64,000 nt of DNA, taken from the NCBI GenBank assembly GCA_964578605.1, contig CAZODO010000017.1, forward strand, positions 3,994 to 67,993. Direction: 5' to 3'. The notes under the pieces are model-generated. The model was not told where the DNA came from, ran no database searches, and saw nothing but the letters and a program-made list of their open reading frames with translations. The position numbers were made by a program, and so were the translations under genes. Of this stretch, positions 57,625-63,892 are shown piece after piece (position 1 is the stretch's first letter; every line of letters begins with the position of its first letter). Source of the DNA: an uncultured Verrucomicrobiota bacterium (lineage in GTDB: Bacteria; Verrucomicrobiota; Verrucomicrobiia; Limisphaerales; SIBE01).

Positions 57625-59727
57625 CTATTGCTGGGCTTTGAAGAACATCGGGCCGTTCGTGGCCGTCACCGTATGGGGGCTCGAGGCACCCCCGACCAGA
57701 TGCCACGGGGCTGTCACGGAGGGTGCCGACAATAAGCTTCCCTCGTAGGTGATGATCATTCCTTTCGCCGTCCTTTGGAAGCTCAACCGCGGCGATGGCG
57801 GAAAGTATCCGAGTTGAGTGAGTGCACTGATGTTATCGAAGTAAACCCTTTCCGCACAAATCAGACCCTGGTTATCCACCTGATTCAGAAGCGCCGCGCG
57901 CACTTCCACGGCCCGACCGGTGGCCGGCAGACCCAAGTACGGGCCGCTGTTGGTCCCCCGATACACCCCCTCCGTCAACACCCAGCCCTCCCCTAAATCC
58001 AAATGCCGGGCAACGTCGAATTTCAGGTCACCAAAGCCCTGGTAAAACAGTTCCATCATCGCGATGGCGGACGGACGATCCAACGGCGCGCCCAACAGGG
58101 CGAACAACACTTGCGCGTCGCCGCGCAAGATCTTGGCAAACTCGGCCAGGTTATGCGCATTCCATCGAGACAGGCCTTCATCGACCGCGGCCACAGGACT
58201 CAGTCCGGTCGGCGCGGGATCTGCCATTGGTGTGACGGGTTGGAGCACTGGCAACTGAGGCGCCGGCATGAGGCCAGTCACAACCATCAGGCTTTGCAGG
58301 TCCATGTAAGTGGTAATCCGTTGAAGCTTGTCGTCTTGGTACTCCCAAACATCCAAATGCATGTGGTCTCCGCCCTTGCCCGTGGCAGGCATGCCCATCC
58401 AGGGATTCCGCAGCGTGCCCGAGGTCGTGTGCGCCGTCACGACGGCGTTGCCGGACAACCAGCGTTGCTCCGAGGTGGTATTGTAGTCAGGAAACCCGTG
58501 GAACAAACCGGAAAAGAAGCCGCCGATGGCGGTCGGGCCAACCAGCATGGGGGGCACCGGCGCAAAGTCGAACACCGCATCCGGCGCCATGAAGCTGACG
58601 ATGGCATCGACGTCATGAGCAGAGATCGCCTGGCCGACCGCAGTGTTAAGAGCAAGAATCGATGTGGCAGGGGGGAAAAGCACTCCACCCGCTCGGTACA
58701 CAGCGACGCCATCATTGCTCGTGGCAATCCACTTATTGCCCCAAACATCCTCCGAAAGGGAATAGAGAATATCGCTGGGCAGCATGGAGTTCTTTGTGTT
58801 GTAGAGCGTCCATTCACTACCGTCATACTTGACCAAGCCGCTCGCACCGGTACAAATCCAGACGTTGTCCTTGGAATCAATTGCGATGAACCACGACGAA
58901 GTAATCGGCATTTTCGTGTTGCTAGCGGTGTAAAAGGTCAAATCATTGCCGGAGATTTTGAGTGCGCCCGCATTCTCGGATCCGACCCACACATTGTCCT
59001 TGGAGTCAATCGCGATCGAGCTCGCCATGGTACTCTGAACCGAGAAGCGTTTCCAGTTCACTCCGTCGAACCTGGCAAGGCCGCCGTCTCCCCACGTCAG
59101 CATCCACACGTTACCGGCCGAATCAAAGGCGATGCCGGACACCGTGTTACCCGGAAGCCCTGAATTCTGGGTATTGTACACTGTCCAATCCTCGCCATCG
59201 AACTTCGCCACGCCTCCACCAAAGGTCGCGATCCAGAGATTTCCTTTGGCATCAAACTTGAGACTCAGAATGTTGTTATTGGGAAGCGGGGAGTTTCCAG
59301 TGTGGTAGGTGGTCCACGTCTTGCCGTCGAATTTGGCCAGGCCACCGCCCGTGTTTTGTGTGCTCCCCGTCCCGATCCAAGTGTTTCCCTTAGGGTCGAA
59401 GGCGAAACCAAAGACATTGTTGTGCGGTAGCCCGGAGTTCCTCGTGTTGTAGACTGTCCAATGGACACCGTCGAACTTCGAGAAGCCACCTCCGTTTGGG
59501 TCGCAGCAATGGCTGTGACCGACCAACAAGCAGCCCTGAGGATCCAGCATCGCGACCGGGGCACGATTGTCGGCGAGACCGGAATTGGACTTGTTGTAAA
59601 CGATCCATTCCGGATTTTGCGATGAGGCCGTGTCCGGCAACAGCAAGGCGGCAATCAGAATCAGCCAGGTGTGCGACTCGGCAGACTTAAAGGGACAGCT
59701 CCGGTGGTGTTGCGTTTCGGTTTTCAT
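57625..59727 (-). CDS. Secreted 7-bladed beta-propeller + tandem SnoaL-like domains + C-terminal putative sorting domain
   Basis: Signal peptide; seven W..YN..NS.LP repeats; two SnoaL/ester-cyclase repeats (AI.GFF..LF.GFPD, ATGRAVEV); C-terminal LLSAPSVTAPW...SP..V...MFFKA. Confidence 0.82.
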   Translation of the reverse strand: MKTETQHHRSCPFKSAESHTWLILIAALLLPDTASSQNPEWIVYNKSNSGLADNRAPVAMLDPQGCLLVGHSHCCDPNGGGFSKFDGVHWTVYNTRNSGLPHNNVFGFAFDPKGNTWIGTGSTQNTGGGLAKFDGKTWTTYHTGNSPLPNNNILSLKFDAKGNLWIATFGGGVAKFDGEDWTVYNTQNSGLPGNTVSGIAFDSAGNVWMLTWGDGGLARFDGVNWKRFSVQSTMASSIAIDSKDNVWVGSENAGALKISGNDLTFYTASNTKMPITSSWFIAIDSKDNVWICTGASGLVKYDGSEWTLYNTKNSMLPSDILYSLSEDVWGNKWIATSNDGVAVYRAGGVLFPPATSILALNTAVGQAISAHDVDAIVSFMAPDAVFDFAPVPPMLVGPTAIGGFFSGLFHGFPDYNTTSEQRWLSGNAVVTAHTTSGTLRNPWMGMPATGKGGDHMHLDVWEYQDDKLQRITTYMDLQSLMVVTGLMPAPQLPVLQPVTPMADPAPTGLSPVAAVDEGLSRWNAHNLAEFAKILRGDAQVLFALLGAPLDRPSAIAMMELFYQGFGDLKFDVARHLDLGEGWVLTEGVYRGTNSGPYLGLPATGRAVEVRAALLNQVDNQGLICAERVYFDNISALTQLGYFPPSPRLSFQRTAKGMIITYEGSLLSAPSVTAPWHLVGGASSPHTVTATNGPMFFKAQQ

Positions 59728-59757: not shown

Positions 59758-59785
59758 AATGAGGCAAAAGGGGTAAGTTGTTACA
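59758..59785 (-). promoter_or_regulatory. Candidate ECF promoter TGTAAC-N15-CCTCATT
   Basis: Same motif and spacing as 63108-63135; 30 nt upstream of ATG 59727. Confidence 0.6.
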
Positions 59786-59868
59786 CACGCTCGTTTCGTT
59801 GGCCCCGTGTTTGCACGCTCTTCGGACGAAGGCACGGGGAGCATCGTGCGGCGATGCGGCTTGGAGTC

Positions 59869-62800
59869 TTACGGAAGCGAAGGGGCCTTGAGCGATGACA
59901 CGCCCTTGCTCGTCGCGTAAGCGAGCGTGTCTCCGTCGGCCAGAAACTCGAGCCACTCTATTCTGTCTGCCGGACGCACCACCCCCGCGTTTCTTCCGAT
60001 ATCGATGCGCCAGAAGTAAATGTAACCTTGGGTATCCCCAGCCGCCAGCATACGCCCGTCGATCGAAAATGCGACCGTTGTCGCGCGCTCGCCCATGACT
60101 TCGAACTGCGCGACCTCGGTCAGCGAGCCAAGGTTCCAGAGGCGAACTGTCCCGTCTCCGCCAGCACTGGCGATGGACTTCCCGTCAGGCGAGAACCTCG
60201 CATCCCTCACGCCGACCCGGTGTCCTCGGAGAACAGCCAAGGTCTGCCTACCCGGGATGTGGAGCAGGGTGATCCCGCCTGCCCAGTGCGCAGCCGCTAT
60301 CAGTTTGCCATCGGCCGAGAAGTCCAGCGTTTGGATTGTTCCACCCTCCGATGTCTCCAACAGCAGTGGCTTCGACGGATGCCTGAGGTCCCAGATCTCG
60401 ACGAAACGAGCCGAATTAGCTCTCGCGAACAGGTTGCCGTCCGGCGAAAATCCAAGAACACAGCTCCAATTGGTGCCGCTTGAGAGGAGTCTCCCAATCT
60501 CCCTCAAGTCGCCGGCCCGCAAGAGGTGTATCAGGCCTTCCTCAGTAGCAAGAGCCAGCACGTCCGCTGTGGGGGAGATTGTGCCTGCCTGGAGATGGTC
60601 GATAGGAAGGCGCCCCGCAACAGTCTGGCGCAGCGACAACTTGTCAAACACCTCGAAAGTCAGGTTGCTGCGGACGAGCATAAAAGCCCTTCCATATCGC
60701 GCCGGGTAGGCTCGCCGGAATAAATGCGGGACCAGGTCGTCAGGGTATGAAATGGTGGCTTTGTTGCCGCTTCTAGCCGCATCACAACGCCACAACTTGA
60801 CTGAACCGTAAGAATCGGCGCTCGCCAGGAACTTGCCGTCGGCAGAGAACTTGACGGTCCAGATCGTCCGGGTATGTCCCTTTAGCACGCCCACCGTTCG
60901 CCAATCTTCGGTGCTCCAGAGAGTGATGTTCTGGCCCTGTCCACAGGTTGCCAGAATCCTGCCGTCAGGGGAAAAAGCCAATCCCGTGACGGATGCTGTA
61001 TCAGCCGCCAGTCCTGCGACTTTTCTCAATTCCGCTGTGGTCCAGACCGTTACCCCGCCGGTCAGGTCGCCTAAAGCAAGGAGATCCCCGTTTGGGCAGA
61101 AACTCAAACAAGAGCAGGTGTCGTTCTTGATCTCTTTGTCGTTTCCCGTGGCGCCAATGAGCTTGAGCCCAACGGCGCCCCGTCCGATATAGGCCAGCAA
61201 ATGCCCGTCAGGCGAAAAAGCTACTGCCCCGTCACGCTCCGAGGCGCCCCCCAGCGCAACCCGTGTGACTTCCTGCGTTCCAGTGAGTTCCCAGAGGGTG
61301 GCAAAGGCATTACCAGACAGAGCTACCTTGCGCCCATCTGGAGACAGCGCCAGTGAGAACACGAATTCTGGTGCCTCGACGGTGCGCGTCTTTCGCCATG
61401 TCTGAGTTTCCAGGATTTCCAGGCCGTCAGACCACGTGCCCGTCAGCAGTTGACGCCCATCCGGAGTAAAAGCAATGGATGCAACTGGTGACTGGCAGAC
61501 GATATTTGTAACGACAGTTCGTGAAGCCAGATCAAAGACCTGCAATCGCGCGTCCCATCCTCCTGAGACAAGCAGCTTCCCATCAGGGGAAAACGCGAGT
61601 GTAGGGACACCATCCGTGTGGCCACGAATCGTCAGCGATTCGTCGCCCCGACACTGGCCCCATAGGTACCGCCATTCCCATCCCCGGAGTTGTTGCACAC
61701 TCGACGGACCAGTCATGTACTGTTCAACCAGCCTTGACGCGATTCCCAGGTTGTTGTCGGCCAACGCGCGGTAGGCCAGGCTCAGGTCGGCGGCATAGAG
61801 GTTCTGAACGTTCCTGAAGGCTTCGGCTTCCGCGCGCTGCCGTTCGCGTTCGATCCGCGCGACCGCGATGGGCGACCCGACCAGGATCAGCATTGCCGCC
61901 AAAGCAAAAGCCGCACCAAGGCTGGCCAGGGCGGGTCTCCGCCGGCACCAGCGCCAAGTCCACCCCAAAGGGCCCAAGGGCCTGGCCCGAATCGGTTCGC
62001 CACGGAGAAATCGCCCCAATTCATCGGCCACCTCCCGCGCGCTGCCGTATCGCCTCCGAGGTTCTTTCTCGAGACATTTCAGGCAGATCGTTTCCAGGTC
62101 CACGGGCACACTTGAGTTGAGAAGCCGCGGCGATCCTGGCTCGCTGTTGACAAGTTGTTCAAGCGTGTCCGTAACCGTGGCGGCACGGAAAGGCGCCCGC
62201 GCCGTCAACAAATAGTAGAACAGAGCGCCTAGACCATAAACATCGCTTCGAGGTCCGACGGAGCCCCACCGGGCCGACGCTTGTTCGGGTGGCATGAAGC
62301 CCGGCGAACCCAGCACCTCCCCGCTCAGGGTTAACGGGTGAGTCATTCCGGTTTGGTCTCCGGCGCCGTCTTCTCCTCCCGCCGGAGCGATAAAGGAACG
62401 CATGGGCTCAATGGGTTGGTCCGTGCCTTGAACTCCAAACTGCTTGGCCAGGCCAAAGTCGCTCACCCTGGGTTCGTCCGCCTCGTCGATGATCACATTG
62501 CTCGGCTTGAGGTCGCGGTGAAGAATCCCTTTCGAGTGGGCGTAATGAACGGCCGCTGCGACCTTCTGCGTATAGCGTGCCGCATGGAGGGGCGTCAACG
62601 GCGTTTCCCGAACCACGCTGGCCAGCGTCCGTCCTTCCACGAAATCCATGGAAAAGTAGGGGCGTCCGTCGTGCTCCCCGGCTTCGTGAATGCTCACGAT
62701 ATTGGGATGGTGCAAGCGCGCGGCTGATTCAGCCTCGATCCGGAACCGGAGCATAGCTGCCTGGCTGGCGAATTCCCCGCCCAGCAGCATTTTCACGGCG

Positions 62801-63087
62801 ACGATCCGGTTCAGGCTGATTTGCCGCGCCTTATAGACCACGCCCATACCGCCCTGGCCGATCTGCTCTAGAAGCTCGTAGTCCTCAAGGCGAAGGCGAA
62901 AGGGCGACGAAAGGGCCTCGGCACTCTCTTGCTGAGCCACCGTCCCCCCGCCGCCGCTCAGCCCGGCATCCGATCGGCTGGCGTCGGCGAGCTTGACACC
63001 CGTATCCAGCAAGCAGCACGGACAAAGCCCCAGCGCCGCCTCTGTCCCGAAGCGAGCACCACACTTTCCACAGATCATGTCTGCCAT
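59869..63087 (-). CDS. Ser/Thr protein kinase with WD40 repeats
   Basis: GQGGMGVVY, VAVK, HRDLKPSN, DFGLAK, TM helix, many GH...WD-type repeats; start at 63087 inferred. Confidence 0.93.
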   Translation of the reverse strand: MADMICGKCGARFGTEAALGLCPCCLLDTGVKLADASRSDAGLSGGGGTVAQQESAEALSSPFRLRLEDYELLEQIGQGGMGVVYKARQISLNRIVAVKMLLGGEFASQAAMLRFRIEAESAARLHHPNIVSIHEAGEHDGRPYFSMDFVEGRTLASVVRETPLTPLHAARYTQKVAAAVHYAHSKGILHRDLKPSNVIIDEADEPRVSDFGLAKQFGVQGTDQPIEPMRSFIAPAGGEDGAGDQTGMTHPLTLSGEVLGSPGFMPPEQASARWGSVGPRSDVYGLGALFYYLLTARAPFRAATVTDTLEQLVNSEPGSPRLLNSSVPVDLETICLKCLEKEPRRRYGSAREVADELGRFLRGEPIRARPLGPLGWTWRWCRRRPALASLGAAFALAAMLILVGSPIAVARIERERQRAEAEAFRNVQNLYAADLSLAYRALADNNLGIASRLVEQYMTGPSSVQQLRGWEWRYLWGQCRGDESLTIRGHTDGVPTLAFSPDGKLLVSGGWDARLQVFDLASRTVVTNIVCQSPVASIAFTPDGRQLLTGTWSDGLEILETQTWRKTRTVEAPEFVFSLALSPDGRKVALSGNAFATLWELTGTQEVTRVALGGASERDGAVAFSPDGHLLAYIGRGAVGLKLIGATGNDKEIKNDTCSCLSFCPNGDLLALGDLTGGVTVWTTAELRKVAGLAADTASVTGLAFSPDGRILATCGQGQNITLWSTEDWRTVGVLKGHTRTIWTVKFSADGKFLASADSYGSVKLWRCDAARSGNKATISYPDDLVPHLFRRAYPARYGRAFMLVRSNLTFEVFDKLSLRQTVAGRLPIDHLQAGTISPTADVLALATEEGLIHLLRAGDLREIGRLLSSGTNWSCVLGFSPDGNLFARANSARFVEIWDLRHPSKPLLLETSEGGTIQTLDFSADGKLIAAAHWAGGITLLHIPGRQTLAVLRGHRVGVRDARFSPDGKSIASAGGDGTVRLWNLGSLTEVAQFEVMGERATTVAFSIDGRMLAAGDTQGYIYFWRIDIGRNAGVVRPADRIEWLEFLADGDTLAYATSKGVSSLKAPSLP

Positions 63088-63107
63088 GGCGCAACTCCAT
63101 GCTCCAG

Positions 63108-63135
63108 AGTGAGGCAAGAGGACGGTTCCGTTACA
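63108..63135 (-). promoter_or_regulatory. Candidate ECF promoter TGTAAC-N15-CCTCACT
   Basis: Between the sigma stop and the kinase start; matches 59758-59785. Confidence 0.6.
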
Positions 63136-63142
63136 GGCCGTC

Positions 63143-63892
63143 CTACTGGCGCAGCACTTCCCGCAGATGGCGCATCTCCTCTCCGACGTCGTCCGGGCAG
63201 GCAACCGTGTGCGCAATCTCCAGTCGCAGCAGCTCGCCGTAGCGTCGGCGGAGTCGGTGCACGGCCACACGAACGGCCCCCTCGCTCATTCTTAGGTCTC
63301 GAGCCGCGTCCCGGTAAGCTCCGCTCTCGTCATCCGTAAGAAATCCTATAAGTCGCTCAAAGACCGCGCCTTTCCCCGCCAACCGGCACTCCTTGCCCAA
63401 ACGGGTCAACACCTGTTCCAGCAACGTCAACGCCCACCGCCGCTCGAACAACCGGTCCGGACTCGACTCGTCCTTTGGCTCCAGCCGGTAGCGCGCGTCG
63501 CCCGCCTGCGTATCAAGGGATACGGGGCGCTGGCCACCCCCGCGTTTCAAACGCCGTTCCCGGTCCCATACATCCGAAAGGAAATGTTTAAGCGCCCCAA
63601 GCAGGTAAAAGCGGAACCGGCCTTTATCGGGGCTGGCCCGGGCGACATGGTTCCCAGCCAAAAAGCGGGCGAGGAACTCCTGGGTCACATCCTCGGCGTC
63701 GTGACTCTCCAGACCACACCCGCGCACGTAGGCGTATAGCGGATACCAGTACTTCCGGCAGAGTCTCTCCAGCGCCTGGATGGAGCCCGGCGACTGGCCT
63801 TCACCCGCCGCGAGAACCGTGCTCCAGTGGGTCGTATCGAACCATGCTTGCCTGCAATGCTGTCTTTCCGCCGTGGACCCTAAGATTCCCAT
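63143..63892 (-). CDS. ECF sigma factor (kinase-associated PVC type)
   Basis: TTHWSTVLAA, YWYPLYAYVR, DAEDVTQEF, GRFRFYL, AVRVAVHRLRRRY. Confidence 0.92.
   Translation of the reverse strand: MGILGSTAERQHCRQAWFDTTHWSTVLAAGEGQSPGSIQALERLCRKYWYPLYAYVRGCGLESHDAEDVTQEFLARFLAGNHVARASPDKGRFRFYLLGALKHFLSDVWDRERRLKRGGGQRPVSLDTQAGDARYRLEPKDESSPDRLFERRWALTLLEQVLTRLGKECRLAGKGAVFERLIGFLTDDESGAYRDAARDLRMSEGAVRVAVHRLRRRYGELLRLEIAHTVACPDDVGEEMRHLREVLRQ

Follow-up and report, generated by a model that had tools for sequence, protein, structure and literature searches.

Predicted promoters of a kinase-linked ECF-type sigma factor, located behind its gene in a Verrucomicrobiota contig

We analysed a bipartite DNA motif, TGTAAC-N12-TTGCCTCAYT, in a 64-kb stretch of contig CAZODO010000017.1 from an uncultured Verrucomicrobiota bacterium (the whole stretch is hereafter called the window). 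The motif precedes a Ser/Thr protein kinase gene and a propeller-SnoaL gene, both of which lie downstream of a divergent extracytoplasmic function (ECF)-type sigma factor gene. Both copies are probably ECF-type promoters that are read by the RNA polymerase carrying the adjacent sigma factor, or by a sigma factor of its narrow clade. The initial annotation had proposed such a promoter tied to the kinase-linked sigma factor, and this proposal is supported by the conservation of the two blocks, their linkage to the 5' ends of genes, their tracking of sigma clades, and a geometry shared with ECF16 promoters. The motif is thus a predicted ECF-type promoter of ordinary design, for a kinase-linked clade that is uncharacterised. 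Less ordinary are the predicted position of the promoter, behind the sigma gene and ahead of the kinase gene, and a second block that differs between sigma clades.

Two motif copies in the last part of the window

The last 6.4 kb of the window hold three co-oriented genes on the minus strand, encoding the sigma factor, the kinase, and the propeller-SnoaL protein. The genes and the two motif copies, with the predicted parts of the latter, are as follows (TSS, transcription start site).

63143 to 63892, minus strand: ECF-type sigma factor gene (249 aa, divergent)
63135 to 63108, minus strand: motif copy A, TGTAACGGAACCGTCCTCTTGCCTCACT; predicted sigma-dependent promoter of the kinase gene
63135 to 63130 and 63117 to 63108, minus strand: blocks of copy A, TGTAAC (predicted -35) and second block TTGCCTCACT
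63112 to 63109, minus strand: -10 candidate of copy A, TCAC; TSS guess about 63103-63100
59869 to 63087, minus strand: Ser/Thr protein kinase gene (1072 aa; Pfam Pkinase, 1.8e-43, and WD40 families)
59785 to 59758, minus strand: motif copy B, TGTAACAACTTACCCCTTTTGCCTCATT; predicted sigma-dependent promoter of the propeller-SnoaL gene
59785 to 59780 and 59767 to 59758, minus strand: blocks of copy B, TGTAAC (predicted -35) and second block TTGCCTCATT
59762 to 59759, minus strand: -10 candidate of copy B, TCAT; TSS guess about 59753-59750
57625 to 59727, minus strand: propeller-SnoaL gene, predicted target (700 aa; Pfam SnoaL, 1.2e-27, and Reg_prop, 2.7e-23)

A pattern scan of the window matched TGTAAC-N12-TTGCCTCAYT at exactly two sites in 64 kb, both on the minus strand, and yielded no third site even at up to two mismatches. 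The number expected by chance was 0.03, and two matches were obtained in none of 100 shuffles. The pattern reduced to its invariant positions, GTAAC-N14-GnCnCA, found the same two window sites and no other, against 0.13 expected. When TTGCCTCAYT alone was searched with one mismatch, 6 window sites were found against 6.3 expected; neither half of the motif was enriched singly, and the signal therefore resides in the bipartite arrangement. Copy A is separated by a 7-nt gap from the stop codon of the sigma gene (gene end 63143) and lies 20 nt ahead of the kinase ATG at 63087. Copy B lies 83 nt past the kinase stop (59869) and 30 nt ahead of the propeller-SnoaL ATG at 59727. The scan thus confirmed what had been noticed at the outset, namely two identically spaced copies, 20 nt and 30 nt upstream of the two genes and downstream of the sigma gene.

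Both copies have the layout of an ECF promoter: an AAC-containing -35, a free spacer of fixed length, a short -10, orientation toward a gene, and a position near a start codon. At the spacing of ECF16 promoters, which read (T/C)GTAAC-N17-CGAA and have a mapped TSS about 6 bp past the -10 (PMC8315932, PMC3420878), the window sites become TGTAAC-N17-TCAC and TGTAAC-N17-TCAT. This geometry would place the -10 at TCAy in both copies. ECF promoters usually have a 7-bp -35 and a 5-bp -10 set 15-18 bp apart (PMC7776599).

Neither a terminator nor a sigma-70-like promoter was detected near copy A or copy B. Since no terminator was seen in the 55-nt gap between the sigma and kinase genes, some read-through from the former into the latter is likely. 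A candidate terminator or hairpin between the kinase stop and copy B was rejected, as it was not significant (z = 0.38).

It had also been suggested that the motif allows the regulon to be predicted. In the window, the invariant pattern recovered the two known sites and disclosed no further ones. Accordingly scanned, the regulon visible in the window is predicted to be small and adjacent, comprising the kinase gene and the propeller-SnoaL gene. One look-alike was considered and rejected as a member:

42402 to 42376, minus strand: TGTAAC-N11-TTGCCTCTCA, located across the stop codon of a Met-zincin gene (DUF4953)

Its spacer is 11 nt, the invariant CA is missing, and it fails the pattern GTAAC-N14-GnCnCA. 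A strong hairpin terminator with a 13-bp stem and a T-run (z = -3.8) follows it directly, upstream of tgt. The relaxed pattern that catches it is expected at 0.16 sites by chance in the window, and the look-alike is probably outside the sigma/kinase system and compatible with chance.

Conservation in the narrow sigma clade and the wider family

A motif scan across species at orthologous ECF-kinase loci, as proposed initially, found a clade-specific variant in all six such loci and a related motif across the family. The sites in the narrow clade are listed below by locus, with the identity of the encoded sigma factor to that of the window.

L149 (75%): TGTAAC-N12-TTGCCTCATT
L151 (65%): TGTAAC-N12-TTGCCTCAAT
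L153 (65%): CGTAAC-N12-TTGCCTCATT
L152 (64-67%): two sites, TGTAAC-N12-TCGTCTCATC and TGTAAC-N12-TTGACTCATT
L015 (60%): two sites, TGTAAC-N12-CCGCCTCATT and GGTAAC-N12-TTGCCTCAGT
L001 (59%): two copies, both with GCCGCA

Eleven sites from seven genomes or contigs could be aligned without gaps. GTAAC and G.C.CA were invariant and the neighbouring T's nearly so, and the 12-nt spacer and both flanks were unconserved. A two-block promoter would be expected to leave this kind of footprint, with a free spacer between two conserved blocks. The pattern GTAAC-N14-GnC(T/G)CA, which was formulated after the orthologous sites had been seen, was present in 6/6 non-redundant loci with a sigma factor at least 58% identical, versus 1/146 others (Fisher p = 4.5e-10). 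Judged by the closest available orthologues, the window copies are a clade-specific variant and not a decayed form of the family motif. In L152 (6743-6748), and also in L034, L037, L040, and L022, the TGTAAC box includes the TAA stop of the sigma gene; the motif there begins 4-5 nt ahead of where that gene ends, so that coding sequence overlaps the predicted -35.

The orthologous copies follow the genes downstream of them. They precede the kinase genes in L149, L151, L152, L153, L015, and L001, and the SnoaL-repeat genes in L015, L152 (opposite strand), and L001 (divergent). Gene order in L015 is that of the window. L149 has an inserted DUF4058 gene that separates its sigma gene from its kinase gene, and the motif lies ahead of the kinase gene, not behind the sigma gene. 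The propeller/SnoaL genes of L152 are convergent with the kinase gene, and there the motif lies ahead of these genes on the opposite strand. In L001, the motif precedes a gene for a 1508-aa exported SnoaL-repeat protein that is divergent from the sigma gene. These three natural rearrangements tie the element to the 5' end of the gene that it precedes and not to the 3' end of the one before it. Sigma, kinase, and SnoaL-repeat genes thus occur together in four genomes and three layouts, with the motif ahead of the latter two genes.

For the wider family, 80 genome loci with relatives of the sigma factor (48-60% identity) were collected and the stretch past each sigma stop was read, which made a longer motif evident. 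An iterated 35-nt position weight matrix (PWM) described a motif, TGTAACCTTT-N8-TTTnCCTnnGTA, in 48 of 79 regions past the sigma stops. When 1.66 Mb were scanned on both strands above 18 bits, 79 matches were obtained, 77 on the sigma strand and 2 on the opposite strand, which served as a composition-matched control. Forty-nine of these matches lay directly behind a sigma gene, 47 directly ahead of a kinase-domain gene, and 12 directly behind a kinase gene and ahead of another gene. The resulting order of sigma, motif, kinase, motif, and next gene is the arrangement of the window. At 68 metagenome loci that had not been used for training, the PWM gave 28 matches, 25 of them on the sigma strand and 17 within 350 nt past the sigma stop. 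The family is mainly from Verrucomicrobiota, and its TGTAAC-type box is often followed by C and T's. Most of the other genes behind the family motif have products of an exported or surface type (N_methyl/DUF1559, Calx-beta, and SdrD_B/lysyl-oxidase proteins, among others).

Some further features of the family loci were observed. In the loci L001-L148 (for example L053:6793, L013:6727, and L066:6800), position 28 of the family motif is often less than 10 nt from the kinase start codon, and transcripts starting from such motifs would be leaderless or nearly so. Two loci carry divergent pairs of family motifs about 70 nt apart downstream of the kinase gene, at L112:6778(-)/6846(+) and L130:7779(-)/7855(+), which suggests divergent sigma-dependent promoters. 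Long hairpins with arms formed by tandem repeats of about 7 nt were seen between the sigma stop and the motif in hand-picked family loci:

L025:2642-2790, hairpin, z = -10.1
L053:6700-6792, hairpin, z = -5.6
L074:6742-6833, hairpin, z = -3.2
L066:6709-6799, hairpin, z = -2.6
L060:6703-6767, hairpin, z = -2.2
L067:5139-5264, hairpin, z = -2.0

The hairpin at this position was not significant in three further hand-picked family loci. Such hairpins may be terminators or insulators that shield the kinase promoter from the sigma gene. Nothing like them is present in the window, where the gap is 7 nt.

The sigma factor and its partner genes

The identities given to the three genes by the initial annotation were borne out: a divergent ECF-type sigma factor, a kinase with Pkinase and WD40 domains, and a Reg_prop propeller protein with two SnoaL domains. 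Taken alone, the sigma factor scored under the curated cut-offs (Sigma70_r2, 21.2 versus 24 bits; TIGR02937, 35.8 versus 42.9), and a direct sequence search against solved structures returned nothing meaningful, with no close solved relative. Its relatives number more than 8000 and are mostly labelled Verrucomicrobiota; a metagenome scan with the sigma factor alone returned only relatives at up to 54% identity. A profile built from 36 relatives matched solved chains of the Mycobacterium tuberculosis ECF sigma factor SigE over sigma2-sigma4 (positions 46-223, E 5e-4). Among the same 36 relatives, Sigma70_r2 was found in 32, r4_2 in 14, and Sigma70_ECF in 10. The AF2 model of the sigma factor had a pLDDT (the model's confidence score) of 80, and all of its best PDB matches were ECF sigma factors (probability 0.9-0.96), with weak E-values of 0.03-0.4. 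The protein is therefore a divergent ECF sigma factor by the family profile, with weak support from the fold.

Region 2.2 of the sigma factor retains the acidic DAED (HDAEDVTQEF), and A66 is invariant and D68 nearly invariant in the alignment of the 36 relatives. Ahead of region 2, an N-terminal segment F-x-T-T-H-W-S-x-V-L (residues 18-30) is present in all 36 aligned relatives, with T20, T21, and W23 invariant. In this DAED-retaining sigma factor, the TTHWS segment is a candidate for a phospho-acceptor or a regulatory extension. Residues 1-17 were modelled with low confidence.

The region upstream of the sigma gene was available from L155, a short public contig that is identical to the sigma gene of the window and supplies a 227-nt intergenic region. 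No copy of GTAAC-N14-GnCnCA was found in these 227 nt, and none of the six orthologous loci (0/6) had a copy upstream of the sigma gene on its strand. A cognate promoter ahead of the sigma gene, as in an autoregulated operon, was not found for the window sigma gene; in the family, the motif lies upstream of the sigma gene itself at only a few loci (L076, L106, L112, and L132). A degenerate sequence, GCTAAC-N12-GCCTCTATT, is located at L155:250-290, about 150 nt upstream of the sigma start and beyond the end of the window. Its spacing is two bases too short and CTAAC replaces GTAAC; this sequence could be a remnant, or else act weakly as an alternative site.

In the kinase, the sequence reads as an N-terminal CxxC zinc ribbon and a Hanks domain that is intact at VAVK, HRD, and DFG, followed by one hydrophobic segment, which is probably a membrane span, and two WD40 propellers. 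The propellers are presumed to form a sensor outside the cytoplasm; periplasmic WD40 arrays are known on kinases of the Planctomycetes-Verrucomicrobia-Chlamydiae (PVC) superphylum (PMC11032199). A GGAG lies 7 nt ahead of the kinase ATG and would fall inside the predicted kinase leader. The Hanks-type kinase gene is directly downstream of the sigma gene, where kinase-associated ECF sigma factors (the ECF43/59/61/62/217/283 type) have such a gene in place of one for an anti-sigma factor; the search for anti-sigma factors was not exhaustive. Predicted to be exported, the propeller-SnoaL protein has an N-terminus that resembles a signal peptide, along with a Reg_prop beta-propeller and two SnoaL-like domains; its SnoaL module is 38% identical to that of the L015 target (E 2e-47). 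In L151, a zinc-ribbon N-terminus is encoded about 600 nt upstream of the called kinase start (1230-1830), and the stretch in between contains tandem CAACG(T/C)T repeats and their complement. This split kinase N-terminus could reflect an insertion, a frameshift, or an assembly problem.

Alternative readings, proposed circuit, and comparison with known systems

Several points weigh against sigma-dependent promoters in the window. The window sequence was matched in DNA metagenomes only (sludge, wastewater, and sediment), with 0 RNA runs matched, and many sigma/kinase pairs, paralogous to this one and with similar motifs, are probably encoded in the genome. The family matches of the sigma factor itself in Pfam and NCBIfam fall short of the curated cut-offs. 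The clade pattern was defined after the fact, and the orthologous loci number six, in which shared descent and co-evolution are not fully separable. In addition, the window copies are weak on the family PWM (copy B, 16 bits; copy A, less than 10 bits), because the best-conserved downstream GTA of the family (positions 27-29) is absent from them. The assignment of the -10 is hence uncertain, and the window promoters may be weak or differently read.

The motif might be a true ECF-type promoter that is read by a paralogous sigma factor of the same large family, in cross-regulation or a cascade. The size of the family (>8000 relatives) speaks for this, as do single genomes holding several loci with near-identical motifs, such as MFD03726.bin.2.170, which alone yields L007, L018, L036, and L038, and the lack of a copy upstream of the sigma gene itself. 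We nevertheless consider this unlikely, since the GnC(T/G)CA variant without GTA is almost confined to the narrow clade (6/6 versus 1/146) and directly adjoins the narrow-clade sigma gene in every case. A comparably low probability is given to an operator of a conventional DNA-binding activator or repressor, with the true promoter elsewhere. A conserved bipartite site just ahead of start codons is also seen with some such regulators, but here neither block repeats the other, whether directly or inverted, and the strand bias is nearly absolute (77/79 and 25/28). The first block is moreover a classic AAC-type ECF -35 at ECF16-like spacing (PMC8315932), no alternative sigma-70-like promoter was detectable, and the sigma factor is the sole DNA-binding protein conserved in the locus.

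That the motif works in the RNA, as a 5'-leader or translation-control element, is very improbable. The sites are near start codons (20 and 30 nt), and pairing of CCT with AGG by the start codon is conceivable in some family members; against this, RNAalifold found no consensus pairing (0 pairs) across the 11 aligned sites, the motif lies anywhere from roughly less than 10 to more than 200 nt from the start codon, and the spacer is without covariation. That the two copies resemble each other by chance, or are neutral leftovers of a local duplication, would have to be argued from there being only two copies in the window, with 16 shared letters in total. This is the least probable of these explanations and is contradicted by 0/100 shuffles with two copies, the retention of both blocks in orthologous loci whose spacers and flanks are unrelated, and the same two gene types preceded by the motif in different gene arrangements. 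A sigma-54 reading of TTGC was rejected because no GG stands at the 10-nt distance that it demands: the arrangement is GG-N12-GC in copy A and is lacking in copy B. The adjacent sigma factor is, on these comparisons of sequence, the likeliest reader of both copies.

Here, we propose a model in which region 4 of the sigma factor would bind TGTAAC as the -35 element, and the -10 would lie within TTGCCTCAyT, most likely as the TCAy that follows TGTAAC at 17 nt, by analogy with ECF16. Transcription starting 6-9 nt past the -10 would give leaders of about 15 nt for the kinase and about 25 nt for the propeller-SnoaL gene. The sigma gene, being without a copy, would be expressed independently from another signal. 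The active sigma factor would then raise its partner kinase and the exported SnoaL-repeat protein; the WD40 domain of the kinase would sense something outside the cytoplasm, and the kinase would modify the activity of the sigma factor, closing the loop. Positive feedback through kinase expression had been put forward at the outset. The loop from the sigma factor to the kinase gene is supported as predicted wiring; its positive sign is unsupported, because a sigma factor that retains DAED need not be inactive without phosphorylation.

More tentatively, and with some doubt on our side, this may be a design of the whole family in Verrucomicrobiota and Planctomycetota. The promoter would lie between the sigma and kinase genes, the kinase would be the feedback node, and each module would drive one adjacent exported protein, with signalling that retains DAED and differs from ECF43. 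The downstream block would have diversified together with the sigma clades (TCAyT here, GTA in most relatives) and could insulate dozens of paralogous modules within a single genome against one another.

The motif leaves the understanding of how ECF promoters work unchanged. Its value lies in the clade, which by itself counts thousands of relatives among environmental Verrucomicrobiota. Outside ECF43, no kinase-linked ECF sigma factor has been characterised (PMC8999054), and a conserved promoter with defined target genes is the read-out that the field lacks for the effect of the kinase on the sigma factor, the phosphorylated residues, and the WD40 signal. Such sites would escape any motif search confined to the stretch ahead of the sigma gene.

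Among known systems, the promoters of the ECF16 group (Brucella melitensis BcrS, Bradyrhizobium EcfF, and Caulobacter SigF), (T/C)GTAAC-N17-CGAA or tGTAACc-N16-CGAA, share with the window sites the TGTAAC -35 hexamer and the same distance to the second block (PMC8315932, PMC3420878). ECF16 sigma factors likewise have small local regulons beside the sigma gene, as predicted here. In contrast, their -10 is CGAA and not the TCAy within GCCTCAyT that is predicted here, they are autoregulated, and their partner is a multi-pass membrane anti-sigma factor, whereas the window has a Ser/Thr kinase and no motif ahead of the sigma gene. By its -10, its regulation, and its partner, the window sigma factor does not belong to ECF16.

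In the ECF43 pairs (Vibrio parahaemolyticus EcfP-PknT and Xanthomonas citri EcfK-PknS), as in the window, the sigma gene adjoins the gene for a membrane Hanks-type kinase with an outside sensor. No anti-sigma factor is involved in these pairs, and the sigma factor drives a small specific regulon (PMC8999054, PMC13147305). ECF43 sigma factors have lost the DAED of region 2.2 and need a phospho-acceptor Thr there (STTA/QTTA) (PMC8999054, PMC13147305). Unlike them, the window sigma factor keeps DAED, carries the extra invariant N-terminal TTHWS segment, and with its HDAEDVTQEF falls outside ECF43; any phosphorylation logic must therefore differ from that of ECF43. It most probably falls in one of the kinase-linked groups of PVC bacteria, ECF59, ECF61, ECF62, or ECF217, which are ECF sigma factors of Planctomycetota and Verrucomicrobiota co-encoded with Ser/Thr kinases (PMC7826278, PMC8999054). 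DAED-like motifs are kept in these groups, none of whose members has been characterised (PMC7826278, PMC8999054). Published ECF promoter predictions assumed autoregulation and motifs upstream of the sigma operon (PMC7826278), unlike the motif of the window, which lies downstream of the sigma gene.

The predicted wiring also recalls Escherichia coli RpoE-RseA and Bacillus subtilis SigW-RsiW, in which a sigma factor controls its own regulator from a bipartite AAC-type promoter and feedback results. There, the promoter is ahead of the sigma gene, sigma and anti-sigma factors rise together, and the regulator is inhibitory. In the window, by contrast, only the kinase gene and the target gene carry the predicted promoter.

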